From an uncultured Candidatus Saccharibacteria bacterium (lineage in GTDB: Bacteria; Patescibacteriota; Saccharimonadia; Saccharimonadales; Saccharimonadaceae), in contig CAZIOA010000001.1 in NCBI GenBank assembly GCA_964540835.1, positions 1 through 42,951 of the forward strand: 42,951 bases of DNA, in the 5' to 3' direction. The notes below the pieces were generated by a model, which worked only from the letters and a program-made list of their open reading frames with translations, was not told the origin of the DNA and did not search any database. Both the position numbers and the translations under genes were made by a program. Of this stretch, positions 1-31,819 are shown piece by piece; the stretch's first letter is position 1, and each line of letters starts with the position of its first letter.

Positions 1-1108
1 AGAAGCCTAGGTCGAGAGGATCAGCTAAGGTGAAATCTGGCACGACGTTTTCAGCGATGTCATCGACAACGGCTTGAGCTGGTGCAACAGGTGTCTTGTT
101 CCAATTAGGAACGACATCTTCAATGATCTGCTTCTGCACTTCTGCACGTCGAACAGGTTCTGGAACCGGTGGCGGTGGGGGTGGTGCGGGTTGATTGTAA
201 TGTGGGTCATTAGCCGGATTGTTCGGACCTGCAATTACGTCGAAGAACGCTTCTCCGATAGGAGGCACGACGTAACCAGCGGCTTCGATAGCCTTTGTGA
301 TCGCATCGCGATCACCTCCATAAATTTCATTGATCACACCGAATTTATCAACAAACGTCACGTGTGGTTCGCGCGGATCAGGAATACGGTGGTTCTGAGG
401 GATGGTCGAAACCATCGCTATAAGTGCGCCAATATCAAGACCCTGCGAACCGCCATTTGCCCAAAAATCGTTGATATCTAATCGATTAATCGTACCTGGT
501 AGCTGTGGTGTATCCAACGGTATGCCTACCATATCTTCCATGATTGGTTTCAATATAGGTTCAAACGTTCTCTTTAGCGGATGATTCAGGATGCCAGTGA
601 CACCATACCCATCACCATTGCGGACAACCTCTACGTTACCCGGTAGCGCGCCTCCGCTTTCGCGGGCAATCTGTGCGGCTGCGACGTTACAGACGGCTGA
701 GCCAAGCGAGAAGCAATCCAGGCGAACTTTCTCGTCAAACTTGTTTGCTCGCCAGGCGTCAACAACTTTCGGAGCGCCGTCAGCGATGGATTGATCCATT
801 CGGGCTGGACCCCCTATGCCAAATACTGCAATCGACGCTGGGTAGTGGATGCGCATGTTGTTGTCGTTCGGATCATAGCGTCCTTGCTGCATGGCAGCAT
901 CGACTGGCAGCTGGCTTGTCGGATCAGCATTACCGCCGACATAGATATTTGTCTCGTCGGCGTGTGCGGCGCCTACACCAAAAACTGCCGCGGTGCTCAC
1001 GCCTACGACAGCGACGGCTTTCGTACCCAGACTTTTTAGTTTCGAACTTTGTTTTTTCTCATTATGAGAAACTAAACCACCTTCAAAGGCCGCCTTTAAC
1101 CTGGCCAT
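1..1108 (-). CDS. Secreted serine hydrolase, PE-PPE/cutinase-like alpha/beta fold, with proline-rich region; C-terminus lies outside the window
   Basis: My own translation of the minus strand from the ATG at 1108-1106. The frame stays open to position 1, so it is absent from the ORF track (no stop in window). MARLKAAFEGG...KAVAVVGVSTAAVFGVGAAHA (signal-like), IYVGGNADPT, IHYPAS, RLDCFSLGSAV (nucleophile-elbow-like xSxG), then NQPAPPPPPPVPEP. Same architecture as the next two genes. Confidence 0.75.
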   Translation of the reverse strand, partial: MARLKAAFEGGLVSHNEKKQSSKLKSLGTKAVAVVGVSTAAVFGVGAAHADETNIYVGGNADPTSQLPVDAAMQQGRYDPNDNNMRIHYPASIAVFGIGGPARMDQSIADGAPKVVDAWRANKFDEKVRLDCFSLGSAVCNVAAAQIARESGGALPGNVEVVRNGDGYGVTGILNHPLKRTFEPILKPIMEDMVGIPLDTPQLPGTINRLDINDFWANGGSQGLDIGALIAMVSTIPQNHRIPDPREPHVTFVDKFGVINEIYGGDRDAITKAIEAAGYVVPPIGEAFFDVIAGPNNPANDPHYNQPAPPPPPPVPEPVRRAEVQKQIIEDVVPNWNKTPVAPAQAVVDDIAENVVPDFTLADPLDLGF

Positions 1109-1365
1109 ATGATAACCCCTATCTGCCCGCCCATTACAAGTTGTGCGGCGAGCGTATCGCACCGCTAGGCAAAAGTCAATGTGAAATATTTCACACTTTT
1201 TATAGGGGTAATTTACTCGGCTAACAGATTACGAGACGAAATAAAACGCATATGCTCATTTACCATCTCTCAACAGATAAGGAAATGTAATGAATGCAAC
1301 AATGTTTTATTGACAACAATGCACATAAATTGTGTGGATATATTGCTTATGTTTACTGTAGTGAC

Positions 1366-1394
1366 AAAATCCGACAGCGTTGCTGCCGGATTTT
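1366..1394 (-). terminator. Rho-independent terminator downstream of 1432..3216
   Basis: Minus strand reads AAAATCCGGCAGC-AAC-GCTGTCGGATTTTGT: a 13-bp stem (one G.T pair) running into a T-run. Confidence 0.7.
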
Positions 1395-1431
1395 GCATCG
1401 CTTTTAGCGAGATATCGCGTACACCGTGCGT

Positions 1432-3216
1432 CTAGCGTGCAGGCGCGAAGTTGCCCATGAAATCGTTTACCTGATCTACGATCTGATGCACAGGAGCTGG
1501 TGCTTCCGGTGGCGGAGGAGGAAGCTGGAATGCCGGTGCCGGTGGTGGCGGTGGTGGAGCAACTGGTGCAGGCGCAGGTGGCGCTACTTCTACGGGTGCT
1601 GGTGGTGGCGGTGGAGGCGGTGGAGCCACTTCCACGGGTGCAGACACTGCTGGTGCAGGTGGTAGCTCTACAGCAGGAAACGCTTCTTTTGCAACCTCTA
1701 CTGCTTTGTCGACAAGCTCTTTGACGGTAGGTTTGGCTGCTGGCACCTCAATGGGCACCTCTGGCGCTTGCGGTGGTGCTGGGACAAAATCCTCGACAGC
1801 ATCTTTCACTGCATTAACCGTGTCCTCGATGACTTCTTGAGGAGTAGGGAGCTCGGGAGTTTTAGCTTTTGGTGCCGCGGCAGCAGGGAGCGCATTTTTG
1901 AGCGCTTGAGGCACATCGAGTGGCGGCAGTACGTTCATATTTACCGTAGGAACTGACTCAGGCCGCAAGACAGAGTTTGGAATCTGCGCGATTTGATTCA
2001 GGTTGTGCTGCAACGAGTTCAAGCCATTTTGAATCGTCAACCCGGTATTGTGCAACGCTTGTCCAGGATTCATGATGGTGTTTTGTGTGCTGAAAAGCGC
2101 CTCGGCGACCATGTTTGGTACTTTGTTGACGAGTTCTAGCCCGAAGTCCACGAGAACACCAGGTACAAACCGAGTCATGACCCAGAAGAGATTTCCCGTG
2201 TTTAGCTGCTGATCCAGCGCGCGGGCAAACTCATCGACGGCGCACTGTCCGTTGACTTCAGGCAATCCGTCACGACCATTGTTGATCGGGAAGGCACAGT
2301 TCGCTGCTTTGTTCCAGTGGTCGTTGACATACATGCCGTTTGCCGCCGCTGCCTGTACGAGCGGATGAACGCCGACATCGTAGCGGAAGTGGATGACGCC
2401 ATACTCGTCCTGCCAAACCATATCCGGATTTCGGTCATGTACCGCATGAGCGGGGCTGGCACCTGTCGCGACGGCCTGCCACAAATTGCCGACCAAGTAT
2501 TGGTTCGCGCCGTTGCCCCAGATGTCGTTTTGCGACGAATGTTCATGTGAGCCTGGAGGAAGCATGGCGTTCATATCAACACCGGCAAGTGCCGCCCACG
2601 GCTCGCCAACCTTGCCCGGCAGACTGTTCCAAAAACCAGTCGAACTGGCTGGACCACCGTAGGAAACGACGAGTACATTTGGCGGTAGCACACCACCATG
2701 CTCACTGGCGATCATATGACCAGCGCGAGCGGCAGCGTCGGCTCCGAGCGAATGACCAACGATAAAGACTGGTTCGCCTCTACTGATTGCGCCACGTGAT
2801 GCTTCGACAGCTCTTACCGCTCCCTCCTCAGAGCATATCTTCATGCGGGCGACATCTGCGCAATACTCGATAGGTACGACGTTGTCTCCGGGACGAATCC
2901 AGCCTTCATGGTGCAGCTGGCCGATTGTACCGCTTGCATTCCAATCACCAAAACCACCTATCACATATTTGTTGACGGCGGAAAGATCAATCTCGTACGA
3001 TTTTGCCACCTCTTGCACGCTTGTTTGCGGTTCGCTCTCAGACGACGCCAGCATGCCGACGCCAGCCGTGACGACTATAGGCGCTACAGCAAGAGCCCCT
3101 AAGCTCCTGAGTGTATCGAGTTTGCTTCTCGGTTCTTTGTCATGGTTAGTAGAAAAACTTTCAAGCCCTCGTATAGTCAGCGCTTGCTCCCCTGAGGCAG
3201 ACCTTTTTTTACCCAT
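1432..3216 (-). CDS. Secreted or anchored lipase/esterase-like alpha/beta hydrolase with poly-proline C-terminal tail
   Basis: 594-aa ORF. N-terminal hydrophobic anchor (LGALAVAPIVVTAGVGMLA), classic nucleophile elbow VGHSLGA, and a tail of about 130 aa rich in PPPPPPPP/APAPV repeats. Block LDQQLNTGNLF is shared with 3369..5885. Confidence 0.85.
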   Translation of the reverse strand: MGKKRSASGEQALTIRGLESFSTNHDKEPRSKLDTLRSLGALAVAPIVVTAGVGMLASSESEPQTSVQEVAKSYEIDLSAVNKYVIGGFGDWNASGTIGQLHHEGWIRPGDNVVPIEYCADVARMKICSEEGAVRAVEASRGAISRGEPVFIVGHSLGADAAARAGHMIASEHGGVLPPNVLVVSYGGPASSTGFWNSLPGKVGEPWAALAGVDMNAMLPPGSHEHSSQNDIWGNGANQYLVGNLWQAVATGASPAHAVHDRNPDMVWQDEYGVIHFRYDVGVHPLVQAAAANGMYVNDHWNKAANCAFPINNGRDGLPEVNGQCAVDEFARALDQQLNTGNLFWVMTRFVPGVLVDFGLELVNKVPNMVAEALFSTQNTIMNPGQALHNTGLTIQNGLNSLQHNLNQIAQIPNSVLRPESVPTVNMNVLPPLDVPQALKNALPAAAAPKAKTPELPTPQEVIEDTVNAVKDAVEDFVPAPPQAPEVPIEVPAAKPTVKELVDKAVEVAKEAFPAVELPPAPAVSAPVEVAPPPPPPPPAPVEVAPPAPAPVAPPPPPPAPAFQLPPPPPEAPAPVHQIVDQVNDFMGNFAPAR

Positions 3217-3322
3217 AGTCTCCCGTATCCCCCTTTTATTGGTTATGGTAGAAGACTATTATGGTTTTACAACAATGTCAATATTAGAACGTTGTAAAAA
3301 CATGTGTTTGCTGTCACATATT

Positions 3323-3350
3323 AAAAACCCACTCTGTCAAAGTGGGTTTT
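3323..3350 (-). terminator. Rho-independent terminator downstream of 3369..5885
   Basis: Minus strand reads AAAACCCACT-ttgacag-AGTGGGTTTTTAAT: a 10-bp stem plus T-run. Confidence 0.7.
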
Positions 3351-3368
3351 CGGCTGTGGAAAACTCCT

Positions 3369-5885
3369 TTAGTTAAATAGGTCGAAACCGACAGCAGGCG
3401 CAGATGGAGCGCTCACGGCAGGTGCCGATGGTTTCGGCACTGGAATATCAAACTTCGGGAGGGACGGTGCAGGTAGTGAATGTGCCGGACTTGGGGTGAA
3501 TTGCTTGACTATAGAAGGGAGTTTGAACGATGGAAATGCTGGCGCGGGTGCTGGCGGTGGCGCGGGTGCTGGCGGCAGCTCTACGACTGGCGGCTTTGGC
3601 GGTGGAGCGACGCGCACAGGAGCAGGCGCTGGCGCGGGTGGTATATATACCGGCTTGGGCGTTTCTAAGCGAGGCGGCTTCGGAGTATCTGCAACGACAG
3701 GCTTTGGCTGCTGTACCGGTTTAGGTGACGGAACTTCATAGGCTGGCGCATCGATGACACGTGGCGGAGTTGGGTCCGGGATCGAATGCACGGGCGGAGG
3801 AGTGATGGCAATCCTATGCTCCACGATGTCGTTGAGCGACTGGCGAGCAGGCTCCGCAGGGGATTTAGGAGCATCCACAGGGGGAGGTGTTTCTACTCGT
3901 ACATGCGTCGGAACGCTATTTGGCTGATCGTCAAGGATATCACTCGCCAGCTGGCCTAGCGATGCCAGTGAGTGTTGAGTAGTTTGTTGTGCCGGGTGAG
4001 GAGCAGTTTGTCGCGAGGCATTGGCAGACGCTAACTCTTGAGCAGTCATGGCGGCATATTGGATGAACTGATCGGCAATCATATTGAGCTCACGACCGAA
4101 GTCCATGCCAGTGTACTGTTTGATCTGGTCTCTCGCCGTGTTGACAACGAAGTTCTTGCCGTCACCAAGTGCGTTTTCGATGACGTGATCGACTTCGCCC
4201 ATGAGTTTGTTGATTTCGCCCATAACAGTGCTAAATGCACGTTGAGCGGCATTAAACTTCGTCAATGGGTCGACATTTGGATCATTGATAATCGCAGCGG
4301 CTTCACCGACAGCGCCTGCCATATGGTTAAAGCCATTCCAGCTATCATCCATCAGCTGCTTCCACGGCTCGGGCATATTCGCTACCAATGTCTGGAAGAA
4401 ATTGCCGGTACCAAACTGCGCGTCAAGTGCCTTGGCTCCATAATGTAGCGCTTCACGAACATTTGCTTCCGGTGGCGGTGCGTTCGGATCGTCATTGCGC
4501 GGAAAGAGGGCACGGAGCGCTCGATTAGCACTCTCGGTGTCCATGATCCTGATACCAGCCCTTTCAAGCGCATCAACGACCCATTCGTTTTCGCGGTGAG
4601 CAACCCAGTGCTCGATGCCGTTCGCATCCTTAAACATCGTCCATGTCACGCTCGGATCATTGCGATCAGGCACCTCATGAGTGCCGTGAGGAATACCGGC
4701 GATGCTATACATGAGGGAAGTAAAGCTTTCGTTGCCACCACTGGCATATGGGTCACGATCATTGTAGAACATGCGTATCTTCGCGCCAGGAGGAAATGCT
4801 TGCTCACCACCCGTGTCGCGGAGACCGATTAACCCCGTGCCGAGTTTGCCCCAAGGACTCTTATCTATACCCTCGGCTCCTTGCGGCCCACCGATCATAT
4901 CGATCGTCAGGTCGCCTGGCCACTTGTTGCCATTTTGCCGATATACGTCCCAGGCAAAATCCTGCCCGGCATACGTACCGAATGAATAATAGATGAAGTG
5001 CGCGTGTTCGCCGCGCGACTGGGATTCCTGGTATCTTGCCATGGAGACTGCCGAGCCCTCTTCAATCGACGTTTCTGGTGATCTAAAGGGGTTACCGATA
5101 CCCATATCGGCAGACCAAGTCATACCTTCGTCACGATTACCAGGAGCGTAACCTTTGGCGTCAAACTCCGGCATAGGAGCCATGACCTGGGTATTGCCAC
5201 CCATACCGTAAGACCTGGTCGTCACCACTGCGTGCTCTATCGTGCCCACTGAAGACGCGTATGAGACGGCAGCATTTTTCGCTTCGCGATCTGGCTTGTC
5301 GGCATGTACGCCACCAAAGAGTACTACGCCAAGCGCCGTGCCACCAGCAAGCACGGTCGCCATGGCTTTTGGCGCTGCGTCAGACGCCAACTCCTGTAAA
5401 CGAGCGGCGGAGCGACTAAGCGCCTTTTTCGTCCTCGTCGACAGTGGATCTTCATCGTTGATTTTAGTCTTTTCGCGTCTCTCCATGCGCGCCTGCAGCA
5501 CAAGTGTTCGCTCCTCTATAGTGTGCTCGCGATGATTCTGCCATTTATTTTGTGCAAAAGTGTAGGCATTTTCGGCCGCCACCACGAGGTTGCCACGAAC
5601 CTGTACGGCTTTTTCTCGAACATGTGTCAGCGATTCAGCGACACCCGCCGCGACCGCGTGCCGATAGTCGACCGGCTCATCCGAGTTTTTATCGAAGTCA
5701 AATAAATTTTCTTCGACCTCCTCACCGCGAAGGTATTTATAGATAGATTCGAGAAACAAGTCACTACCGAGGTCATCCAGCCCCTCTTCCGAAGCGAGAT
5801 ATTGCTCCATTTCTCGATCATGAGTAGCCAAGGCATCTAACGATACTTCAACCTCTGTCTCAGTTGTTACTAAACCTCGACTCAT
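3369..5885 (-). CDS. Membrane-anchored paralog of the poly-proline-tailed hydrolase family (possibly degenerate nucleophile)
   Basis: 838-aa ORF. Charged N-terminal region of about 170 aa, one TM (AMATVLAGGTALGVVLFGGV), core with YYSFGT elbow-like motif and LDAQFGTGNFF block homologous to 1432..3216, and a Pro-rich tail of about 200 aa (PAPAPAPV, PPAPAPPPAPAPAF). Confidence 0.8.
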   Translation of the reverse strand: MSRGLVTTETEVEVSLDALATHDREMEQYLASEEGLDDLGSDLFLESIYKYLRGEEVEENLFDFDKNSDEPVDYRHAVAAGVAESLTHVREKAVQVRGNLVVAAENAYTFAQNKWQNHREHTIEERTLVLQARMERREKTKINDEDPLSTRTKKALSRSAARLQELASDAAPKAMATVLAGGTALGVVLFGGVHADKPDREAKNAAVSYASSVGTIEHAVVTTRSYGMGGNTQVMAPMPEFDAKGYAPGNRDEGMTWSADMGIGNPFRSPETSIEEGSAVSMARYQESQSRGEHAHFIYYSFGTYAGQDFAWDVYRQNGNKWPGDLTIDMIGGPQGAEGIDKSPWGKLGTGLIGLRDTGGEQAFPPGAKIRMFYNDRDPYASGGNESFTSLMYSIAGIPHGTHEVPDRNDPSVTWTMFKDANGIEHWVAHRENEWVVDALERAGIRIMDTESANRALRALFPRNDDPNAPPPEANVREALHYGAKALDAQFGTGNFFQTLVANMPEPWKQLMDDSWNGFNHMAGAVGEAAAIINDPNVDPLTKFNAAQRAFSTVMGEINKLMGEVDHVIENALGDGKNFVVNTARDQIKQYTGMDFGRELNMIADQFIQYAAMTAQELASANASRQTAPHPAQQTTQHSLASLGQLASDILDDQPNSVPTHVRVETPPPVDAPKSPAEPARQSLNDIVEHRIAITPPPVHSIPDPTPPRVIDAPAYEVPSPKPVQQPKPVVADTPKPPRLETPKPVYIPPAPAPAPVRVAPPPKPPVVELPPAPAPPPAPAPAFPSFKLPSIVKQFTPSPAHSLPAPSLPKFDIPVPKPSAPAVSAPSAPAVGFDLFN

Positions 5886-5960
5886 AAACAGTATTCATAT
5901 TAGCATGTATTTTGACTTTTGTCAATTTTAGTGCAAAGCATTTACGGTATAATGATACAG

Positions 5961-7854: not shown

Positions 7855-8343
7855 TCATGAGGTCTTGATACGACGATACGCGAACTTGACGGACATGCGC
7901 CAGTTGCCACGCGCGTCCGTGTCAAACTGACGAATTTCGCCGTCAGGAATCTCACTTATCAACACCAGTCCGGGATTATACGGTGCAAGCGTACGGTAAT
8001 AGACAAGGTCCTCAGGCAAGATATGACTCCGACCAGGGAATACGTTTCTGACATGCTCGCGGCCGATATCATCGAAGTAATGTGGCTGGCCTTTCGGTGG
8101 AACATACAGCTCAGCCTTGAGCCCCATGCGAGCGATGAACTTTTTGATATCGCCAAGCGTCAGGTTAGATTGCGCGGTGATGTATGTAAACAATTGCTTC
8201 TTCGAAGTCAGAAAAACAGTCGCCACGGCAGTACGACTCACGGGCACCTGTCGAACGATGACACTATCGATCTCTAGAGCTAGCCCGAATTTCTGCTTGA
8301 CTGTCCGCTCAAGATCAAAATCATCGAAAATTTCATCACTCAT
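7855..8343 (-). CDS. Hypothetical protein (162 aa)
   Basis: The ORF track extends to 8673, but that part is antisense to the patatin gene. The internal ATG at 8343 (MSDEIFDDFDLER) has a TATACT box 10 nt upstream. No motif recognised. Confidence 0.55.
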   Translation of the reverse strand: MSDEIFDDFDLERTVKQKFGLALEIDSVIVRQVPVSRTAVATVFLTSKKQLFTYITAQSNLTLGDIKKFIARMGLKAELYVPPKGQPHYFDDIGREHVRNVFPGRSHILPEDLVYYRTLAPYNPGLVLISEIPDGEIRQFDTDARGNWRMSVKFAYRRIKTS

Positions 8344-8479
8344 AATTAGGTGAAGTATAGCATATAATAGACAATCCTTATTGTTTATGCCGTAATAATA
8401 CCTCGTGTTTGCTAAAATTTCGCTTTGTACTATAGTGTTACCAATATTCATGTAAATCCGGGTGGTTGCTGGAGGTAAT

Positions 8480-9331
8480 ATGGCAGGTCTTGAAACCAAC
8501 AAACACAATACGCTTTCAACCGTACTTGGAGCAGGCGGTCCATTTGCTATCGCATACAACTCTGGTATATGCATGGGGTTAGGCGAGAGGGGAATCAATC
8601 TCCGCGAAGATGATGGACCTATAATCGGCACCTCCGGCGGGGCTTGGACGGCTGGTTTCATCGTTACCGACAAAACAGAAGAAGAAGTCGAGGCAATCCC
8701 TCCTGTCGAGTTCCCAAATCGTGAAGAAGACTACCTGCTGGATATGGGCGAGAAGGTCTTTGGTGACGCGCGCTCTGCTCGTATAGGGAGCGTCGTCCTG
8801 CGACTACCGTCAGTCAGAAGACTCCTCCCAGGCAGAGAGGTGCTTTGGGATGAGAATATCACTATCGGGCAGAAGGCGGCGGCTACCTCTGCCATTCCAG
8901 TCGCATATCGTAACGTCAAACTACGGGGCAATCGATATATAGACGGCGGCTCAACCCTGTCGTTTACCCATGCCGACCTGGCACCAGCAGCAGATCATCT
9001 ACTTGTCGTTGCTGCTCTCGCTCGACACTCCAAGTTATCTCTGGGACCGCTCAAGGATCCTTCTCTCGTAGGTCGCCAGTTAGAGCTCAGAACCAAGTAT
9101 GAAGCTCGACGGTGGGAGAAGAAGTATCAAGGACAAACCGATATCATCATGCCAACTCCTGAAATAGGCGGGCTTGTCGAACGTTTCTCCGATCTATTCG
9201 TCAAGAAAATCGCTCGACGGGCATATGACATGGCTATCGAGCAAGCACATCAAGCGGTAGAAGAGCGCCCAAGCCTGGCTGCACTTGCCGAAAAAATGAC
9301 TCAAAAAGCCGCACAGGCCCAACAGACGTAA
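8480..9331 (+). CDS. Patatin-like phospholipase
   Basis: Oxyanion-type GAGGPFAIAY, nucleophile GTSGG (GxSxG) and catalytic-Asp motif IDGG. ATG at 8480 lies 5 nt after GGAGG (ORF track GTG at 8462). Confidence 0.8.
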   Translation: MAGLETNKHNTLSTVLGAGGPFAIAYNSGICMGLGERGINLREDDGPIIGTSGGAWTAGFIVTDKTEEEVEAIPPVEFPNREEDYLLDMGEKVFGDARSARIGSVVLRLPSVRRLLPGREVLWDENITIGQKAAATSAIPVAYRNVKLRGNRYIDGGSTLSFTHADLAPAADHLLVVAALARHSKLSLGPLKDPSLVGRQLELRTKYEARRWEKKYQGQTDIIMPTPEIGGLVERFSDLFVKKIARRAYDMAIEQAHQAVEERPSLAALAEKMTQKAAQAQQT

Positions 9332-9354: not shown

Positions 9355-12300
9355 ATGGATTTTGAGACACGCCTGAACAAGCTGAACGAAGATCAGCGTG
9401 ATGCGGTCGATACTATCGACGGACCGGTGCTGGTGATCGCCGGACCGGGAACCGGCAAAACCGAGCTGCTCAGCATGCGCGTCGCGAACATACTACGGCA
9501 AACCGACACGCTGCCCGAAAACATCCTCTGTCTGACATTTACCGAAAGTGGCGCAGCTAACATGCGCGACCGTCTGACGCGATTTATCGGACAGGCGGCC
9601 CATGACGTCAACATCGGTACGTACCACGCATTCGGCGGTGATCTGATCAAGCGATTTCCGATGTATTTCATGGAGTCACGACTCCAGAGCCCTGTCGATG
9701 ATCTCGGTCAACACCAAATACTCGAAGCCATTATTGACAAGATGAGCTACTCAAACCCGCTCAAACAGACACGCCACCATCTGGGTGACCTGAAAAGTAC
9801 GCTCAGCGAGATCAAGCGTGCGCTGCTATCGAGCGACGACCTCCGCCAGATCGCTACTGAAAATACAACCTTCATCCAGGAAGGTAACCGGGATGTCGCC
9901 GCGATATTCGTTAACTTCACGACTATGCCACGTAAGCTTGAAAAAGCACTGCCTTATTTCGAAAACACGCTTACCGCTATCGAGAAGCACGTCTCTGATA
10001 GTACGCATGAACACATTGTGCCCCTCGCGAACATTGCCCACAAAGAACTTCGTGCCGCGCTAGAAGAAGCGCAGGAAAAAACCACGCCGCTCACGACATG
10101 GAAAAACAAATGGCTCGCAAAAGATGCTGGCAATAAATTTATCCTGGCTGGCGAGCTGGAAAACAGACGAATCAACGCACTGGCCGACGTCCTCGATCAG
10201 TACCAAAAAGCGCTGGAATCGCGTGGACTCTATGACTTTGACGATATGATTATCCGATCCATCCAGGCACTTGAGCGGCATGATGATTTGAAATTCACAC
10301 TACAGGAACAGTACCAGTACTTACTCCTTGATGAGTTCCAGGATACCAACGCCGCGCAACTACGTCTCGTGCAGCTTCTCACGGACAATCCTGTCCACGA
10401 AGGTCGCCCAAATGTCATGGCAGTTGGTGATGACGACCAGGCTATCTATGCCTTTCAGGGCGCCCAGTATTCGAACATGTTGGACTTTCACAGGGCGTAT
10501 CGTGACGTTCATGTCGTCAACCTCAGCCGGAACTACCGTTCGCACGCTGACATCCTGTTAAGCGCGCGCAATGTCGCCGAGCAAATCGCCGAACGTCTGC
10601 ATCATAAGTTTGATGACATGACGAAGACACTCGTCGCATCCAACCCTAATCTGCCCGAAAAAGCCACCATCTCTCGCAACGAATTTCTCAGCGGCATCGC
10701 GCAGTACGATTGGATCGCGCACCAAATCAAGCGGCTTATCGACGACGGGGTAGAGCCGCGCGAAATCGCCGTCCTGGCACCCAAGCATCGACAGCTTGAA
10801 CCACTCGTGCCATATCTCAATGCGCTCGATATACCAGTACGTTACGAAAAACGCGAGAATATCCTGGAAGCGCCAGTCGTCACGCAGCTGCTCGCCATGA
10901 GCCGTCTCGTGCTTGCTATCAAGAGCGGACAGAACGCCCTGGCAAACTCATTGTGGCCTGAGGTACTGAGTTATGATTTTTGGAATATACCGACGCATAT
11001 CATCTGGCAGCTTGCGTGGAAGGTGAGTGATTCCGATGACGACAGCTACAACTGGAACAAAGCAGTACTGGACGAAGACGTCTGTCGCGAGCCAGCGCTG
11101 CTTTTCCTGTCACTCGCCGGGATGAGCGAAGGTGAATCACTGGAGACTATGCTTGACTACCTGATCGGCACATCTCCTGTGGACACGCATGAGGAGTCTC
11201 TACCGTCCATTCGTTCACCGCTCCGCGAACACTACACCGGTCAACAGGCACAAGCAAATAATCCGCAACTATTCTATGAAACACTATCTCATCTGAAGAT
11301 ACTGCGCGAAAAACTGCGTGACTATCAGCAAACGCATGATCGTGCCCTGACGCTCGCGGACCTGATCACGTTCATCGATATGTATCATGCGGCCGAGCAG
11401 CAGATGATCAACACCAGTCCATACAACCAGGACGCCAATGCCGTGCAGATCATGACGGTGTTCAAAGCGAAAGGACTGGAGTACGAGCATGTCTTCCTGC
11501 CAAGCTGCACAGATGAAGTATGGGGCGGCTCATCACGTGGTAATTCCAACAAGCTGACACTGCCGCCAAACCTTGCGCCGATCCGCCACGCTGGCGCGAC
11601 TGACGATGAGCGATTACGCATCTTGTTCGTAGCGCTGACACGCGCCAAATTCGGCCTCTATATGACCAGCTACACGCAGAATTACAATGGCAAAGCGACG
11701 AAGCGACTGAAATACCTGGACGAGCAAGACCAAGGCGACGATACGTTCCGTAGCATGATATTACCATCCGAATCGCAACTGGTACTTGTCGACGATCGCT
11801 CGACTCCGCCTATAGAGAGTCTGGAGCTCGACTGGCGAGTGCGACACTCCGACGGCATCGCCGTCGCGAATCTCCGCGCGCTACTCGAGGATAGGCTACA
11901 GAAATACAAGCTCAGCCCGACGCACCTGAACTCGTTTACCGATGTCATGTACGGCGGACCGGTGAGTTTCTACTACAACACGATACTCCGTTTCCCTCAG
12001 GCTCCGACGCTTGCGAGCCAGTACGGCAACGCCATGCACGAAACCATGGAGTGGATCCAATACCGCGTCGATGAGTCCGGGACGGTACCGACACTCGACC
12101 AGACTGTCGCTGAATTCACCGAGCGGATGAAGGCCAAGAAGCTGCCGGAGCAGCAAGAAACACTGGAGGTCGAAAGGGGAGTGGTAGCGCTATCTGCGTA
12201 TCTGTCACAGCGTTCGCACATATTCAAGCCTGGCGACAAAGCAGAGCACAACTTTGCTCGCGAAGGCGTGGTTATCGATGACGTATATATGAGCGGTAAA

Positions 12301-12693
12301 ATCGACCGCATGGAAATCGACAAAGAGAAGAAAGAAATCGTTGTCGTCGACTATAAGACCGGCAAAGCCTTTGACCGCTGGAAATCCGATGCCAAGCTAC
12401 ATAAGTACCGCCAACAACTCTACTGCTACAAGCTGCTTATCGAGAGCTCACACACGTTCGTAGGCTACAAAGTCGTCGAGGGGCGTCTCGAGTTCCTGGA
12501 GCCAGACGAGACGAACAATATTCACTCATTGTCACTGGCGTTCGACGACGAAGAGCTAGAGAAGAACACACGACTCATGAAACTCGTCTGGCAGCACATC
12601 CATGACCTGTCATTCCCAGACACTTCCGACTATGACGAGTCGCTTACAGGCATCAAACGATTCGAGCAAGATTTGCTCGATGGTAAAATATAA
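9355..12693 (+). CDS. UvrD/PcrA-type SF1 DNA helicase fused to a C-terminal PD-(D/E)xK (RecB/AddB-like) nuclease
   Basis: Walker A GPGTGKT and motif II DEFQDT. C-terminal DRMEI...VVVDYKTGK...YRQQLYCY nuclease signature. 1112 aa. Confidence 0.85.
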   Translation: MDFETRLNKLNEDQRDAVDTIDGPVLVIAGPGTGKTELLSMRVANILRQTDTLPENILCLTFTESGAANMRDRLTRFIGQAAHDVNIGTYHAFGGDLIKRFPMYFMESRLQSPVDDLGQHQILEAIIDKMSYSNPLKQTRHHLGDLKSTLSEIKRALLSSDDLRQIATENTTFIQEGNRDVAAIFVNFTTMPRKLEKALPYFENTLTAIEKHVSDSTHEHIVPLANIAHKELRAALEEAQEKTTPLTTWKNKWLAKDAGNKFILAGELENRRINALADVLDQYQKALESRGLYDFDDMIIRSIQALERHDDLKFTLQEQYQYLLLDEFQDTNAAQLRLVQLLTDNPVHEGRPNVMAVGDDDQAIYAFQGAQYSNMLDFHRAYRDVHVVNLSRNYRSHADILLSARNVAEQIAERLHHKFDDMTKTLVASNPNLPEKATISRNEFLSGIAQYDWIAHQIKRLIDDGVEPREIAVLAPKHRQLEPLVPYLNALDIPVRYEKRENILEAPVVTQLLAMSRLVLAIKSGQNALANSLWPEVLSYDFWNIPTHIIWQLAWKVSDSDDDSYNWNKAVLDEDVCREPALLFLSLAGMSEGESLETMLDYLIGTSPVDTHEESLPSIRSPLREHYTGQQAQANNPQLFYETLSHLKILREKLRDYQQTHDRALTLADLITFIDMYHAAEQQMINTSPYNQDANAVQIMTVFKAKGLEYEHVFLPSCTDEVWGGSSRGNSNKLTLPPNLAPIRHAGATDDERLRILFVALTRAKFGLYMTSYTQNYNGKATKRLKYLDEQDQGDDTFRSMILPSESQLVLVDDRSTPPIESLELDWRVRHSDGIAVANLRALLEDRLQKYKLSPTHLNSFTDVMYGGPVSFYYNTILRFPQAPTLASQYGNAMHETMEWIQYRVDESGTVPTLDQTVAEFTERMKAKKLPEQQETLEVERGVVALSAYLSQRSHIFKPGDKAEHNFAREGVVIDDVYMSGKIDRMEIDKEKKEIVVVDYKTGKAFDRWKSDAKLHKYRQQLYCYKLLIESSHTFVGYKVVEGRLEFLEPDETNNIHSLSLAFDDEELEKNTRLMKLVWQHIHDLSFPDTSDYDESLTGIKRFEQDLLDGKI

Positions 12694-14532: not shown

Positions 14533-15492
14533 TTAGATAGGTAGGTTGATAAAGCTAGTCAGGCTACCCAGCAGACCCGACGCATTGCCAGCCATACCGT
14601 TTGCTATGCCGATCTGCGACGTGATTGCGGAGAATGAACCCATCAACCCACTCAAGCCCCCCAGACCGCCGAGCATACCGCTCAGATCGCTGATATTTCC
14701 AAGGTTGCCCAGATTGCCCAAGCTACCAAGACCGCCCAGACCGCCCATCATGCCGCTAAATGTCGCGACGAGCGCCATGACCAGCGTGATCGATGAAGCA
14801 AGTATAGACCCGATGGTAGTCATCATGGTAGAGATATTGTCAAGCTGAGACTGTGCGGAGGTGACGACTCCTTCGCCGTTAAGATTCAAGTCCACGCAAG
14901 TGCTTTTGTCCGTGTTGCCAGACAAGCACTTCCTGATTTTTGCTATTTGGCTCTGTAGCCCTCCGGCAGTTTTCTTGAGCTTGTCAAATACGCCAGACAA
15001 GCTCTCTATCGCTTTGGTTACGGCCGCTTGTACGTCCGTCAGTTGCGTGATCTGGAACTGCGCGTCGATATTCTTGGCAAGCGACTTCAAGTCACCCAGT
15101 GACATGGTGTTCGTGACTTTTTCCTGCATGGCTTTGAGCTGCTCAATGACTTTTTCGATGAACTTTTTGACTTTGTCTTTGAACTCGCTCGGCAATGTGT
15201 CTTTGTTTTTTGTGGTGTCTTTGTCGTTCAGGCCCTTTACCTGAAACGTTGTGCCGTTGCTGCTGATATGGATGTCTATGCTCAGGCTTTTTCTTGTTTT
15301 TTCGAAGTTTTCCAGACGGCGATCAATTTCTTTGAGCACCTTCTGCTTGAGCTCTTTGACTGCCTGCGTTTCGGCAGCGGCTTGTGCGTTTACCGTGGCT
15401 ACTGGCACCGATACAGCCAACAACATACTCATAAATAGCAGTGCGCATGCAGATACGGCCCTTGATGTGAAACGGGGGAGAGTGATATTCAT
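14533..15492 (-). CDS. Secreted coiled-coil protein with Gly/Leu-repeat hydrophobic C-terminus (hypothetical)
   Basis: Signal peptide MNITLPRFTSRAVSACALLFMSMLLAVSVPVATVNAQA, long K/E-rich helical region, and a C-terminal GGLGGLGSLGNLGNLGN...GGLGGLSGLMG tract. Confidence 0.65.
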   Translation of the reverse strand: MNITLPRFTSRAVSACALLFMSMLLAVSVPVATVNAQAAAETQAVKELKQKVLKEIDRRLENFEKTRKSLSIDIHISSNGTTFQVKGLNDKDTTKNKDTLPSEFKDKVKKFIEKVIEQLKAMQEKVTNTMSLGDLKSLAKNIDAQFQITQLTDVQAAVTKAIESLSGVFDKLKKTAGGLQSQIAKIRKCLSGNTDKSTCVDLNLNGEGVVTSAQSQLDNISTMMTTIGSILASSITLVMALVATFSGMMGGLGGLGSLGNLGNLGNISDLSGMLGGLGGLSGLMGSFSAITSQIGIANGMAGNASGLLGSLTSFINLPI

Positions 15493-15493
15493 C

Positions 15494-15793
15494 CTAGTCT
15501 CCTAACTTTACTCTGTTTTTACTATCGTCAAGCGCTGCCTCGGCCGCTTCTTGGGCGTCTTTTGACTGCTCGATGCTCGCCTCGAGCGTCGCGAGATTTT
15601 GCTTCGCTTCGTCAGCCGAAGTGACCGACGCTTCCGAAGTGTTTGCCTGTCCCGTACTGTTCGCGCTACCTTCTTCTGGCGCCGCAGAGCCAAATACGAT
15701 ATAGAGCGCAAGCGCGATGACGATAAATACAGCAGTGACAGTGCCGACGATGAGCCACGCAAATCGTCGAGAAGATTGTTCTGTTTTGTCCAT
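15494..15793 (-). CDS. Small single-pass membrane protein (hypothetical, 99 aa)
   Basis: TM WLIVGTVTAVFIVIALALYIVFG followed by an acidic tail. The stop lies 1 nt from the start of 14533..15492 (same operon). Confidence 0.55.
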   Translation of the reverse strand: MDKTEQSSRRFAWLIVGTVTAVFIVIALALYIVFGSAAPEEGSANSTGQANTSEASVTSADEAKQNLATLEASIEQSKDAQEAAEAALDDSKNRVKLGD

Positions 15794-16035
15794 TTGTATC
15801 CCTTGCTACTGTTTGTTTTTATCTGTTATGCGGCGATTGTAGCATAAGCGTGAACACTTCGCAAGTTTCTAGTTCAGCTATCTCAAAAAAGTAATGGTTG
15901 CAATCAAAAAAAAGTAGGAGTATCGTAAAAACTTGGCAAAAATAAATCAAGGAAATTATGTCGCACCACGAACAGTTGACACAACGCGAAAACAACATCA
16001 ACGAACCGATACAACGAAAAATAGGAGCAACGACG

Positions 16036-17007: not shown

Positions 17008-17065
17008 TCACTGTATGGCTTGATAGCGCTAGGTCTTGCGCAAAATAACATTTGTTGAGCTGAGC

Positions 17066-17490
17066 CTACAGTCGACGACGACGACGCTGCAAATCAGCGA
17101 CCTTCAAGCGTACCGCATGACGATCAACGAGCTGGCTGGCTTTTTCGAGCTCTACCTGATCCTTGGCGCTTTCGCGCATTTTCATGGCGCGGTCGAGCGC
17201 AGCTTTGGTTTCTGCCTCTATGATATCCTCGCCGCTGTCAGCCTCGTCGACAAGTACCTTCAGGCTGTCCTGAGATACTTCGATCACGCCGCCGGTAATG
17301 GCGTAGTAGTGCAGGTGCTCATTGCTGTCGATCTTGTTTCTGCGCACAGCAATCGCGCCCGGCACGGCGATGCTGATCAGCGGTTCGTGACCGGGAAACA
17401 CCGCAATTTCACCATCTGCCGTCGGCAAAATTACTTCATAGACATCTTCGTCTACTTTAGTCCCGAGCAATGTGACTAACTGAAACTTCA

Positions 17491-17491
<1 letters not shown>
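17066..17491 (-). CDS. atpC: F1 ATP synthase epsilon subunit
   Basis: MKFQLVTLLG...GEIAVFPGHEPLIS is typical of epsilon. The GTG start overlaps the atpD stop by 1 nt. Confidence 0.9.
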
Positions 17492-18972
<1,481 letters not shown>

Positions 18973-19409: not shown

Positions 19410-20275
19410 TTCATCGCCTCCACGCCGCCGCTGATTTCGGCGAGTTCCTGTGTGATCGCGCTCTGGCGGGCTTTGTTCATGGCGAGCGTCAGGTCATCGA
19501 TCAGGTCGCTGGCGTTGTCGGTCGCGTTTTTCATGGCGAGCATACGCATGATGTACTCGCTGGCACGGGCTGTAAGCAACGCGTGGTACACTTGCGCCTC
19601 GACGAGACGATACGTCACAGCAGCCAGCACTTCCTCGGCACTTGGCTCAAATGTCGCTTGGCGGACAGCTTCGCTCACCTCGGTTTTTTCAAACCCGGCT
19701 GGCAATATACGCTGCACCGTCGCCTCTTGCTTGACGGTCGAAACAAATTCGGTAAACACGATATCGACAGCATCGACGTCGCCGTTCTCAAACGACTCTA
19801 CCGCAGCGTCGACAATCGCGCGCAGCTGGTTACCGGCTGGATCGTCGGGCAGATCCTGGTATGCGGCAGTAACCTGTGTGTCTTTGAGCCTTGAAACGAA
19901 ACGGTTAGCACGACGACCGACGGCTATGGTTTGGTTTTTTATGCCAGCCGCATCGTCGTCGAGCAACTGTCGGGCGTAGAGTTTGAGTACGTTGGCATCG
20001 TATGCACCAGCAAGACCTTTGTCAGTCGCAATGACGATGAGCATGCGGCTTTTGATCTTGTCGCGCCTTTGAAACAGCGGATGTCGATCAGTTTCGCCCT
20101 GCGCAGCAAGGTGGGTCAGGATCTCACGTGCAGCGGTCGTGTATGGACCTGATGCTTTTTCGGCTTCCTGAGCCTTGCGCATCTTGCTAGCTGCCACAAG
20201 TTGCATGGCCTTGGTAATCTGCTTGGTCGATTTGACCGAGCGGATACGGGTTTTGAGCGCGCGGGTACTAGGCAT
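19406..20275 (-). CDS. atpG: F1 ATP synthase gamma subunit
   Basis: MPSTRALKTRIRSVKSTKQITKAMQLVAASKMRKAQ N-terminus and ITQELAEISGG C-terminus are typical of gamma. Confidence 0.95.
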   Translation of the reverse strand: MPSTRALKTRIRSVKSTKQITKAMQLVAASKMRKAQEAEKASGPYTTAAREILTHLAAQGETDRHPLFQRRDKIKSRMLIVIATDKGLAGAYDANVLKLYARQLLDDDAAGIKNQTIAVGRRANRFVSRLKDTQVTAAYQDLPDDPAGNQLRAIVDAAVESFENGDVDAVDIVFTEFVSTVKQEATVQRILPAGFEKTEVSEAVRQATFEPSAEEVLAAVTYRLVEAQVYHALLTARASEYIMRMLAMKNATDNASDLIDDLTLAMNKARQSAITQELAEISGGVEAMK

Positions 20276-20615
20276 CCTTAACCTCCCGAGCTACTTTACC
20301 AAGTGCTTCCTGTTTTGCGCGTCTTTGATTCTTTAGAAATTTATGAGATGGAACCGGAGTGTACTTTGAGTAAACGCCACTCCGACGCATAAGCCGCTCC
20401 GTAGCTGTCACTCGTTTTACCTCATCAGCTGTGTCTGTGTTATCTATCGCGCTAAACACCGCGCGTGCAGCTTGTCGATCAGCCAGTGTTTCATCGATAT
20501 CATCATTGGCCGCAGGCGCCTCGCGGTTCACGCGTCCACGTGCAAGCAGATCGGCATCAGCGCGGGCCCATCCGTCCAGCATTTCCATACTTTCGTCCGA
20601 CAAGTGTTCGGTCAT
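20268..20615 (-). CDS. Unknown 115-aa acidic/basic protein embedded between atpA and atpG
   Basis: Starts 3 nt after the atpA stop and overlaps the atpG start by 8 nt. No TM and no recognisable motif. Confidence 0.55.
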   Translation of the reverse strand: MTEHLSDESMEMLDGWARADADLLARGRVNREAPAANDDIDETLADRQAARAVFSAIDNTDTADEVKRVTATERLMRRSGVYSKYTPVPSHKFLKNQRRAKQEALGKVAREVKDA

Positions 20616-20618
20616 TGT

Positions 20619-22154
20619 CTACCCTTCGAATCCTTTCGCTACAGCTACGGCGACTTTCTCGAGCAATTTGGCTGTTTTGGAATCGTCAGTTATCTTTTCG
20701 TCGCCCTTGTTGAGTTCCTGCATGTCCTTTTTGTGGTCGGTCCATAGGCGAGTGAGTAGGGCAGTCTGCGCGTCCTTGATCTTGCTGACGGCAACTTTGT
20801 CGAACGCACCGCTGTTGACCGCGTAGATAGAAGCGACTTGCTCCCAAACGCCAAGAGGACTGTACTGAGGCTGCTTGAGCAGCTCTGTCAGGCGCTGACC
20901 GCGCTCGATCTGGCTCTTGGTCGCTTCGTCCAGGTCGCTACCGAACTGCGCAAATGACGCAAGTTCGCGGAACTGTGACAGGCCAAGTTTCAGGTGAGAG
21001 CCAACGGATTTGACAGACTTCGTCTGCGCGTCACCACCGACACGGCTCACAGAAAGACCTGCCGAGATAGCTGGGCGGATACCCTGGTTGAAGAGGTCTG
21101 TCTCCATGAAGATCTGACCGTCGGTAATAGAGATAACGTTGGTCGGAATGTATGCAGAAATGTCACCAGCCTGCGTCTCGATGATAGGCAGTGCAGTGAG
21201 TGAACCTGCGCCCAGGTCGTCAGACAATTTCGCAGATCGCTCCAGAAGGCGAGAGTGTAGATAGAAGACGTCGCCAGGGAAGGCTTCGCGTCCCGGTGGG
21301 CGGCGGAGCAGCAGTGACATCTGGCGGTAGGCGACAGCGTGCTTGGTTAGATCGTCGTAGATGATGAGCGCGTGTTTTTTGTTGTCGCGGAAGTACTCGC
21401 CCATGGCAGTACCAGCGTATGGCGCCAGGTAGAGTAGGGAGGCGGGGTCAGACGGACCAGTCGCGACGATGATGGTTTGATCCATCACGCCTTCTTCTTT
21501 CAATCGTTCGACGAGGCGGGCGATTTTCGACAGTTTCTGGCCGACAGCGACGTAAATGTTGACGACGCCGGTCTTTTGGCGGCCTTGGTTGATCATGGTA
21601 TCGATCGCGATAGCCGTCTTGCCAGTCTGGCGATCGCCGATAATAAGCTCACGCTGGCCACGACCGATAGGGAACATCGCGTCGATCGCCATGACACCGG
21701 TCATCATAGGCTCGTGGACGTGCTTACGACCGAGGACGCCGATCGCTTCACGTTCAACCAAGCCTCGGTGTTTGGTCTTGATAGCAGGACCGCCATCGAG
21801 CGGACGACCAAGCGGATCAACCACGCGGCCGAGGAGCTCTTCGCCCACGGGAACGTCCAGAATCGTGCCCTTGAGCGTCACTTTCGCGCCAGCTGCAACC
21901 TCTTCATCGCTGCCCAACAGCACGGCACCGATTTCGTCTTCGTTCAGGTTCAAGGCAAATGCTTCGACCGTACCGCTCTTCGTTTCGATAAGCAACACTT
22001 CGCTCGCACCGGCACTGCGAAGGCCGTACACCCAAGCCACGCCGTCACCGACGCGGGTGACGATACCGACGCTTTCCAAATCGCCAGATACTTCGAGTGC
22101 GGCAATCGCATCGCGGAGATCCTTGCTGAGTTCTGTAACTGTTAATTCTGCCAT
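20619..22154 (-). CDS. atpA: F1 ATP synthase alpha subunit
   Basis: Walker A GDRQTGKT; 511 aa; typical alpha sequence throughout. Confidence 0.95.
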
Positions 22155-24917: not shown

Positions 24918-25004
24918 CTTTTTTGCCACTAGATACTATGATTTAGGCACTTCATGGCGGTGGGGCAGAAGTACATTGACAAGCAGACAGACACAAGGTG
25001 AGTT

Positions 25005-25198
25005 ATCGCTGCGCCACTTCGCGCGCACCGGTATCTCATCTTGTGTTGGTAAGAATACACAAGCGGGGGAGACCCCGAGGACAATCGCCTGTGAGAACCG
25101 GAAGGAAGCGCGATGCGAATCGCAATCCCAAAGGGCCGGGCGATAGTCTCGGTCAAAACACGCCAATTCGATACCGAAAGGAATGGGGTCTGACAATC
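25005..25198 (+). promoter_or_regulatory. Structured GC-rich 5' leader of the acyl-CoA dehydrogenase gene (candidate cis-regulatory RNA, unclassified)
   Basis: Hairpins CTTGTGT/ACACAAG (25040/25057), CGGGG-GAGA-CCCCG (25064-25077) and GCGAT-GCGA-ATCGC (25110-25123). Long-range helix CCGAGGACAATCGCC (25075-89) with GGCGATAGTCTCGG (25139-52). No SD in front of the ATG at 25199. Confidence 0.35.
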
Positions 25199-29865: not shown

Positions 29866-29968
29866 CACACCCTGACCGCCACTGAGACTTGCCAATACAA
29901 CAACTAGACTATATTGCTATAATATGATATAGTTATACCAGTCCCATTCATATACGAAGGGAGGGACG

Positions 29969-30190
29969 ATGACAGAAGCTGGTATACATCTGATGGCAAG
30001 TCTATTTGGAGCATTCATCGGAACTCTTGCCATAATCATGCTCGTGATCATGGTGGTAACGGTCATGGTGAAAGTGGTAGCAAGAGTCGCCACGATGATG
30101 GGATTCGATCAGCTTGAGTTCAGGATGAACTACTGCGTGCCTGAGGGCATCAAGGAAGCGGAGAAGTACGCAAACTCTCCCGCATCCTGA
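29969..30190 (+). CDS. Small membrane protein (73 aa) between the AAA+ and Pup-ligase-family genes
   Basis: Strong RBS GAAGGGAGGG 4 nt upstream. Hydrophobic residues 8-45, polar C-terminal tail. Confidence 0.6.
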   Translation: MTEAGIHLMASLFGAFIGTLAIIMLVIMVVTVMVKVVARVATMMGFDQLEFRMNYCVPEGIKEAEKYANSPAS

Positions 30191-30208
30191 CCGCTACATC
30201 TACCAACG

Positions 30209-30295
30209 CCCCCGTCTGCACCTCGCACCAATTCACGACGTTGCACAATCCAGTTGGGATTGTCGTACTCGGAATTGGTGCAGGTAGCGCGGGGG
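30209..30295 (+). other. Extended RNA hairpin / possible terminator or attenuator
   Basis: GCACCAATTC (30225-34) pairs with GAATTGGTGC (30272-81). Inside it are ACGAC/GTCGT and CAATCC/GGATTG pairs, and outside it CCCCCG/CGGGGG, followed by TCTCTCTTTTTGG. CTGCACC (30216-22) can alternatively pair with GGTGCAG (30277-83). Confidence 0.5.
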
Positions 30296-30376
30296 TCTCT
30301 CTTTTTGGCTCTTTCTCTCAGTGGTAACAAATAGGCTATTTTATATTTGCGCCTATACGCGTATAATGTGCCCTCA

Positions 30377-31804: not shown

Positions 31805-31819
31805 GCTATACTGGATACG

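Follow-up and report, generated by a model that had tools for sequence, protein, structure and literature searches.

Tandem hydrolases of a divergent PE-PPE/cutinase-like subfamily in a Saccharibacteria-like patescibacterium, candidate outward-facing esterases at a conserved chromosomal locus

How Patescibacteria, and Saccharibacteria among them, cross the envelope of a host and acquire lipids that they cannot synthesise is the question raised by three consecutive open reading frames (ORFs), here called A, B and C, on contig CAZIOA010000001.1 (GenBank assembly GCA_964540835.1). The window, i.e., the whole stretch of 42,951 nucleotides analysed, carries them at positions 1-5885, all on the minus strand, as described in a first-pass annotation of the same DNA. 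Pairwise sequence comparison identified the three products as true paralogs (BLASTP: A-B, 29% identity over 298 amino acids (aa), E 1e-17; B-C, 27% over 256 aa, E 5e-16; A-C, 24% over 252 aa, E 5e-9), and they form a divergent subfamily of the PE-PPE/cutinase-like superfamily rather than ordinary members of it. All the motifs quoted in the first-pass annotation were present (FSLGS at A133, GHSLGA at B154, YSFGT at C300, IYVGGNADPT at A55, IHYPAS at A87, PAPPPPPPVPEP at A307, LDxQxxTGNxF at B334 and C487, APAPAF at C779), while its labels of a first and a third gene were inconsistent, IYVGGNADPT and the tail reported as cut both belonging to A.

The alpha/beta-hydrolase cores proposed for the three proteins were supported by structure models, fold searches, profile searches and conservation of the catalytic triad. 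An exhaustive hidden Markov model search with the aligned cores against 1.84 billion representative proteins (E<=1e-3) retrieved 143 relatives only. The profile of this family aligned with a bona fide PE-PPE protein (hhalign 96%, E 3.8e-9), and its best matches in the PDB were 5W95 (Rv3802c, E 2.4e-7) and 3AJA (MSMEG_6394, E 1.1e-5), followed by CE5 esterases (4psc, E 1.5e-4; 1bs9 and 1qoz, about 1e-3) and the D29 LysB. AlphaFold2 models of B and C, built on the family alignment, reached a predicted local distance difference test score (pLDDT) above 90 for residues 80-370 of B and 220-560 of C, and displayed a strand-Ser-helix nucleophile elbow (in B, strand 150-155, Ser156, then helix 157-171). 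Foldseek matches were alpha/beta hydrolases only, including 3aja, 2czq, 3hc7 and the acetyl-xylan esterase 1qoz; 3AJA ranked first for C, and 2CZQ, 3HC7 and 3AJA were among the matches of B. The structures to which the PE-PPE fold is likened (3AJA, 3HC7, 2CZQ and 1BS9) were thus all among the profile and fold matches, and the likeness to PE-PPE and cutinase-like enzymes noted at first reading was recovered by structure prediction.

Sequence models placed the family at the margin of PE-PPE detection. None of A, B and C matched PF08237 even at E<=1 (gathering threshold, 21 bits), while their orthologs on a related contig, L001, scored above that threshold (C-type 29.3 bits, A-type 25.1 bits), as did family members P0032 and P0025. 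Among 80 relatives, 24 matched PF08237 (scan at E<=0.01) and 5 matched Cutinase. The Pfam check suggested earlier (PF08237, PF01083, PF12697) therefore gave no score on the window proteins and succeeded for PF08237 on their orthologs. This failure of the window proteins where orthologs pass, together with the modest E-values against the PDB, is the reason for filing them as a divergent branch. Two word-index homolog searches returned B itself and one ortholog only, the low-complexity tail having probably crowded the candidates in the first; a PDB sequence search with B alone gave noise only, and GTDB species genomes scanned with B-type and C-type patterns yielded no relative.

Five columns of the family alignment were at least 90% conserved, and three of them were Ser156, Asp231 and His257 (B numbering). 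The triad was retained in nearly all ungapped sequences (Ser in 136 of 137, Asp in 138 of 141, His in 139 of 140), and its spacing in A, B and C was 75-80 residues from Ser to Asp and 25-26 from Asp to His. PE-PPE domains are characterised by a GxSxG/S pentapeptide around the nucleophile (PMC3037379). The elbow of B was such a pentapeptide, GHSLG, while those of A (C-F-S134-L-G, with triad S134/D214/H240) and C (YYSFG) were devoid of the first Gly of GxSxG. One copy had been suspected on this ground of being a pseudo-enzyme, a suspicion that was not upheld: Ser, Asp and His were intact in all three proteins, and the residue at elbow position -2 was simply variable among orthologs (G, S, A, C or Y). 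Catalytic competence of A, B and C is the best explanation of these alignments and models.

Hydropathy displayed a single N-terminal hydrophobic segment in each of the three proteins, in agreement with the signal or anchor noted previously. Among family members, the 15 residues flanking this segment contained on average 4.4 Lys+Arg before it and 1.0 after it; the N-terminal flank was the richer one in 85 of 90 members and the opposite was never seen. Such a strong positive-inside signal implies an N-in/C-out orientation with the catalytic domain outside the membrane, and the catalytic domains of A, B and C are accordingly given here as outward-facing by prediction. The segment of C lies about 170 residues from the N-terminus and is therefore a membrane anchor, not a signal peptide; C-type relatives had 110-290 aa ahead of it. 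The segment of A, with AHA|DE after it, could be a cleaved signal peptide. Neither an LPxTG sorting signal nor a lipobox Cys was found in A, B or C, and B contained two closely spaced Cys pairs.

Pro+Ala accounted for 41-47% of the residues in the tails of B and C, while Pro accounted for 5.7% in the cores. The long poly-proline tails reported at first were a fair description of B (runs of 8, 6 and 5 Pro), but C had PPP runs only and the tail of A was short. The latter had been taken as cut by the edge of the window; an identical 14.6-kb Logan contig (L006) has a stop right after ...LADPLDLGF, so that only the stop codon of A is cut, and A-type orthologs elsewhere were 368-408 aa long. With about 65-70 aa in the tail of A, long tails are thus restricted to two of the three genes. 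Tandem-repeat DNA was minimal in the tail-coding regions of the locus, and contigs from other metagenomes, used to check for tail-length polymorphism, broke in the low-complexity regions.

The tails of B and C were not pure low complexity and contained short acidic amphipathic helices, three of them in B, where the last, VHQIVDQVNDFMGNFAPAR (window 1435-1491), is the family-conserved terminal helix ...Q(V/I)xDQVNxF(L/M)xG(F/L)xxPRR, found by motif in 26 of 87 long relatives. The short tail of A held two acidic helices, IIEDVVPNW and VVDDIAENVVPDF. A basic C-terminal end was present in 40 of the 87 long relatives, and seven other long relatives, C of the window among them, ended in (I/L)F(G/S/N). 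Among short family members, 11 of 57 ended in C...YFTPGDAPC. None of these terminal peptides (helix, (I/L)F(G/S/N), C...YFTPGDAPC) was recognised as a known sorting signal. The Pro-rich regions had been compared with wall-spanning or surface-display linkers; as spacers between anchor and enzyme they are at odds with the actual order of anchor, hydrolase, helical extension and Pro-rich tail: the tail is distal to the enzyme and no stalk separates the enzyme from the anchor. As polyproline II rises by about 0.3 nm per residue, 120-180 tail residues would reach 35-55 nm if extended in that form.

The source is a Saccharibacteria-like patescibacterium judging from its proteins, because AtpD of the window was 87-92% identical to proteins of Candidatus Saccharibacteria/Saccharimonadales metagenome-assembled genomes (one labelled Nomurabacteria) and one family member was annotated as "Patescibacteria group bacterium". 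Cultured Saccharibacteria are epibionts or parasites of Actinobacteria (PMC11880426), and an action on a host envelope had been proposed at first for the case that the organism is such an epibiont; its AtpD places it in a lineage known for them. A Corynebacterium-like actinobacterial genome, considered on account of Pup-ligase-like, AAA and helicase-nuclease genes, was rejected, as the AtpD relatives were Saccharibacteria and the Pup-ligase and AAA matches fell far below cut-offs.

At least five related lineages displayed the locus in synteny (L001, L002/3, L004/5, L006-8 and L009/10), with the conserved order helicase-nuclease, [patatin-like], small ORF, tRNA U5-methyltransferase, C-type, [B-type] and A-type(s); glgB/6PGD flanked it in relatives on the side opposite the methyltransferase. 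The same arrangement in this many lineages indicates that the duplications are old and that the locus is chromosomal and not phage-borne. Hydrolase orthologs shared only 27-46% identity, versus 73-80% for the adjoining methyltransferase, a divergence typical of interaction-interface proteins. The homologs were lineage-specific and fast-evolving, not the ordinary housekeeping enzymes that would have spoken against the first interpretation. Metagenomes with the locus came from soil, bovine, compost, sludge and mixed-culture samples. Parts of A, B and C were covered by compost metatranscriptome contigs at 95-99% identity, a weak hint of expression. On syntenic contig L001, two more proteins with strong PF08237 matches (87 and 66 bits, at 17056-18555 and 19444-21105) and acidic or Ser-rich tails brought the total to five PE-PPE-like genes within 14 kb, and type IV pilin-like ORFs were found at 5084-5338 and 15409-15909.

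Mycobacteriophage proteins were the clearest sequence relatives identified outside the clade. The family member P0073, retrieved from the library at E 1.3e-17, was 28% identical to A (E 3e-14), comparable to the identity of A with its own paralogs. Its gene (8001-8768) follows lysin A at a distance of two genes on L011, a mycobacteriophage-like contig; the LysA encoded there is 71% identical to the one of phage Milly. P0073 shared 39-41% identity with Barnyard gp45, NoShow gp33 and DrLupo gp47. Barnyard gp45 (L012, 4965-5861) matched the family profile at 99.6% (E 5e-24), while the presumed LysB of that phage (gp40) matched at the elbow only. The homologs in Barnyard, NoShow and DrLupo, all annotated as "hypothetical protein", are encoded downstream of the lysis cassette, a few genes away, and may represent a second, unannotated class of esterases in these phages. 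A fold search of the viral models in BFVD gave as best matches a Gordonia phage serine hydrolase, a Mycobacterium phage hydrolase, a Gordonia phage PE-PPE protein and several LysB. Orthologs matched phrog_102 ("endolysin") in PHROGs, where A, B and C themselves had no match, and tblastn of A and of the core of B against 50,697 phage genomes was likewise empty.

The three proteins are paralogs of one fold with a conserved triad and a common topology signal, their locus is syntenic and fast-evolving, and the taxon and the sequence links to mycobacteriophage proteins are likewise shown. From this we infer, with a probability of about 0.5, that A, B and C act outside the cytoplasm, as serine esterases or acyltransferases, on ester-linked envelope lipids, probably those of an actinobacterial and possibly mycolic-acid-containing host. 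One N-terminal segment would hold each protein in the cytoplasmic membrane, or export it through, with the enzyme outside. The tail of B and C would form an extended Pro/Ala-rich arm of 170-200 aa that could reach tens of nanometres through and beyond the epibiont wall, with a short conserved helix at its end in B. The Ser-Asp-His triad would attack ester-linked envelope lipids, most likely in the envelope of the actinobacterial host, where mycolyl or acyl-trehalose esters are possible substrates if that host contains mycolic acids. The host outer lipid layer would be loosened and/or fatty acids freed for an organism unable to make them.

The link to a host envelope, and to mycolata in particular, was drawn from the way of life of the lineage as epibionts, the speed at which the locus evolves, the habitats in which it occurs, the kinship with PE-PPE, Rv3802c and LysB proteins restricted to Mycobacteriales and their phages (PMC3037379), and a precedent. 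The saccharibacterium Ca. Mycosynbacter amalyticus, the one cultured parasite of mycolic-acid bacteria, requires an intact mycolic acid layer of Gordonia for attachment and lysis (PMC11880426). Several points weigh on the other side. Chp1 and Chp2 (Rv1184c), enzymes of the PE-PPE fold that have been characterised, are biosynthetic acyltransferases, not degradative enzymes (PMC3318749). The Foldseek matches to the PDB were weak (E about 1e-3, TM-score about 0.45), and among Pfam and NCBIfam models only Lipase class 3 (PF01764) scored on any of the three proteins, namely on B, limited to the elbow and below threshold (14.9 bits, E 0.026; gathering threshold 22). DNA carry-over may contribute to the compost metatranscriptome contigs. 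Finally, with the enzyme proximal to the membrane and the tail distal, the host surface may be out of reach unless A is released, B and C are cleaved, or the two cells form a tight junction.

The main rival explanation, possible though on the unlikely side, starts from this last point, since the catalytic domain adjoins the organism's own membrane: the proteins would be Chp1/Rv3802c-like transesterases or lipases that remodel or assemble the envelope lipids of the epibiont itself, using lipids scavenged from the host. In its N-terminal half, B is laid out like Chp1 as regards transmembrane segment and triad positions (PMC3318749), Rv3802c/MSMEG_6394, which gave the best match among solved structures, is a cell-wall lipase/thioesterase that mycobacteria cannot do without (PMC2625445), the locus is chromosomal and conserved, and a patatin-like phospholipase gene is kept in its neighbourhood. 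However, no pks, papA, mmpL or fadD genes were found nearby, the divergence of the orthologs relative to their neighbours is unusual for core biosynthetic enzymes, and it is phage proteins that come closest to the family outside the clade.

A role as CE5-like carbohydrate esterases, deacylating wall polysaccharides or peptidoglycan of host or epibiont, was considered improbable. The profile matches to CE5 and acetyl-xylan esterases and the Foldseek matches to 1qoz and to the cutinase-like 2czq would fit it, but the CE5 matches were weaker than those to mycobacterial lipid esterases and PE-PPE proteins, and the Asp-His spacing of 25-26 residues is that of PE-PPE/Rv3802c, not the approximately 12 of classical cutinases and CE5 (PMC2625445). 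Still less credit was given to non-catalytic adhesins or spacers, in which a pseudo-enzyme fold would bind a ligand and the Pro-rich tails would do the work. The elbows of A and C without their first Gly and the long tails with conserved terminal peptides suggest such binding roles, while retention of Ser, Asp and His in A, B, C and more than 97% of the 143 relatives is a purifying selection unexpected for pseudo-enzymes, and the missing Gly stands at a position that varies freely among orthologs. Passive carriage of a prophage lysis-cassette remnant with LysB-like genes is very improbable despite the fold and profile kinship with LysB and Barnyard gp45-like proteins, as the locus is flanked by a tRNA U5-methyltransferase on one side and, in relatives, by glgB/6PGD on the other rather than by phage genes, occupies an identical position in at least five lineages, carries anchors, helical extensions and Pro-rich tails foreign to lysis-cassette LysB, and gave no tblastn match (A and B) in the phage genomes.

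The preferred reading of A, B and C as esterases acting on host envelope lipids can be joined with these observations in a more specific scenario, which is doubtful as a whole. A mycolata-type esterase would have been captured from hosts or phages by environmental Saccharibacteria and expanded into an anchored, fast-evolving battery (A, B and C types) able to breach or strip the mycomembrane where epibiont and host meet. The tail with its terminal helix would serve for reach and docking, and through the cytoplasmic N-domain of the C-type proteins contact with the host would be signalled into the cell. The family would then be functionally analogous to a phage LysB acting "from without", and its presence in a genome would help to predict which uncultured Saccharibacteria parasitise mycolic-acid bacteria. 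The locus provides testable candidates for the question raised at the outset, i.e., predicted outward-facing esterases with intact triads and a fold that is otherwise characteristic of enzymes in mycobacterial envelope metabolism and in lysis by mycobacteriophages, at a conserved chromosomal position yet diverging rapidly, in soil, compost, sludge and bovine metagenomes. If this is confirmed, the family could help to predict the hosts of uncultured epibionts, account for one step in epibiotic attack or in the scavenging of lipids, and yield new enzymes acting on the mycolata envelope.

Table 1. Coordinates of genes A, B and C, their predicted domains and an upstream promoter-like site in the window.
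Feature	Coordinates	Strand	Remarks
Gene A	1..1108	minus	369 aa; codons 2-1108; base 1 is the first stop-codon base
A N-terminal hydrophobic segment (aa ~30-49)	962..1021	minus	followed by AHA|DE; signal peptide or signal-anchor; hydropathy and charge flanks
A PE-PPE-like alpha/beta-hydrolase domain (aa ~52-300)	209..955	minus	
A short C-terminal tail (aa 301-369)	2..208	minus	21% Pro, single P6 run
Gene B	1432..3216	minus	594 aa; elbow G-H-S156-L-G; triad S156/D231/H257
B N-terminal membrane anchor (aa ~38-57)	3046..3105	minus	hydropathy, charge flanks
B alpha/beta-hydrolase core (aa ~78-310)	2287..2985	minus	pLDDT >90
B helical extension (aa ~311-420)	1957..2286	minus	LDQQLNTGNLF; motif common to B and C
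B Pro/Ala-rich tail (aa 421-594, 174 aa)	1435..1956	minus	28% Pro; P8, P6 and P5 runs
Gene C	3369..5885	minus	838 aa; elbow Y-Y-S301-F-G; triad S301/D378/H403
C acidic helical N-terminal region (~170 aa)	5376..5885	minus	predicted cytoplasmic
C transmembrane anchor (aa ~171-195)	5301..5375	minus	hydropathy, charge flanks, AlphaFold2 model
C alpha/beta-hydrolase core (aa ~220-470)	4476..5228	minus	pLDDT >90; best PDB match 3aja_B (MSMEG_6394)
C long-helix extension (aa ~471-639)	3969..4475	minus	helices 506-533, 540-592, 597-627; LDAQFGTGNFF motif
C Pro-rich tail (aa 640-838, 199 aa)	3372..3968	minus	29% Pro; terminus ...GFDLFN
Promoter-like site TTGACA-17-TAATAT (with TG)	5897..5925	minus	12 nt upstream of the C start codon; consensus match alone

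No minus-strand terminator-like site was seen between the three genes, and the window contained no tRNA or Rfam element. Besides the locus, the window encoded an F1Fo ATP synthase, a UvrD-type helicase-nuclease, Dus, SmpB, a UMP kinase, GT4 glycosyltransferases, an acyl-CoA dehydrogenase and a distant Pup-ligase-like/AAA pair. The patatin-like phospholipase gene (8462-9331, plus strand), whose product is another lipolytic enzyme encoded close to the esterases, was kept in L002, L004 and L006 at 55-73% identity. The small ORF (7855-8451, minus strand; 162-198 aa in relatives; ...FDDFxLERT(V/I)K...) had no family match and was conserved at 61-73% in all syntenic lineages, between the methyltransferase and the patatin or helicase genes. 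The UvrD-type helicase-nuclease (9355-12693, plus strand) was 70% identical to that of L001 but only 36-38% to those of L002 and L004, which suggests uneven divergence or gene replacement.

Further away, genes for a 541-aa AAA ATPase, a 485-aa PafA/Dop-like homolog and a 280-aa Abhydrolase_1 protein stood side by side (28240-32662, plus strand). The PafA/Dop-like homolog matched PF03136 at E 9e-40, yet with 94 bits against the 551-bit PafA cut-off; the three genes may form a pupylation-like module, one that is very divergent and lies outside Actinobacteria. The acyl-CoA dehydrogenase (24998-26494, plus strand; 498 aa, with an N-terminal extension of about 100 aa) belongs to a patescibacterial genome, a reduced one, and may have a bearing here if the organism uses fatty acids that the esterases release.

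Compared with known systems, the patescibacterial taxon, the tandem A/B/C arrangement at a conserved locus, the cytoplasmic N-domain of C-type proteins, the helical extension and the Pro-rich tail with its conserved terminal helix appear undescribed, and a literature search on these traits found nothing. Nor was any literature found that links Saccharibacteria to PE-PPE, cutinase-like or LysB-like enzymes, or that reports a lipid-cleaving enzyme in a parasite of mycolic-acid bacteria. With PE-PPE hydrolases (PE16/Rv1430), A, B and C share the alpha/beta fold, the xxSxG elbow, and the triad with its spacing, which in the PE-PPE domain of Rv1430 is 77/26 (S199/D276/H302; PMC3037379). They differ from these in falling below Pfam detection, in being devoid of PE/PPE N-terminal domains and of a type VII secretion context, in occurring in Patescibacteria instead of Mycobacteriales, and in having an added helical extension (B and C) and Pro-rich tail.

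Chp1 and Chp2 are cutinase-like hydrolase proteins that act as membrane-anchored acyltransferases of trehalose glycolipids. Chp1 (Rv3822) has a transmembrane segment at residues 46-64 and the triad S156-D232-H255, and works at the membrane-cytosol interface (PMC3318749). By these published positions, B is alike in its single N-terminal transmembrane segment (about 38-57) followed by a PE-PPE domain (S156/D231/H257), while the window proteins are predicted to face outward and B and C are longer by 280-370 aa, helical and Pro-rich. Instead of a pks/papA/mmpL locus as for Chp1/Chp2, the neighbours are the methyltransferase, helicase-nuclease, patatin-like, Dus and ATP synthase genes.

Rv3802c, cutinase-like protein 6, is an essential mycobacterial cell-wall phospholipase/thioesterase with a long Asp-His spacing, unlike classical cutinases (PMC2625445). 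Together with MSMEG_6394 it provided the best solved-structure match, the family triad aligning to its GFSQG Ser, GD Asp and PVH His, but with only about 15% identity and a TM-score of about 0.45, and Rv3802c sits in the mycolic-acid synthesis cluster of an organism that produces mycolates. To our knowledge, Saccharibacteria make no mycolates. Classical cutinases and CE5 enzymes (PF01083) have the minimal alpha/beta-hydrolase fold in common with A, B and C, with weak profile and fold matches; the PF01083 model did not match any of the three, and their Asp-His spacing of 25-26 contrasts with about 12 (PMC2625445).

Lysin B of mycobacteriophages (D29 gp12, 3HC7) is a mycolylarabinogalactan esterase. 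With it and with Barnyard gp45-like proteins, the kinship is one of fold and profile: the cutinase-like fold is shared, 3hc7 being among the top PDB matches of B. The phage hydrolases are soluble proteins of 250-360 aa without long tails, encoded in or near lysis cassettes, while A, B and C are predicted to be anchored, B and C carry long tails, and the locus is chromosomal, sitting between housekeeping genes and not in a cassette with lysin A and holin. The target of these phages is the mycolata envelope, approached from outside the host cytoplasm, as it would have to be by an epibiont.

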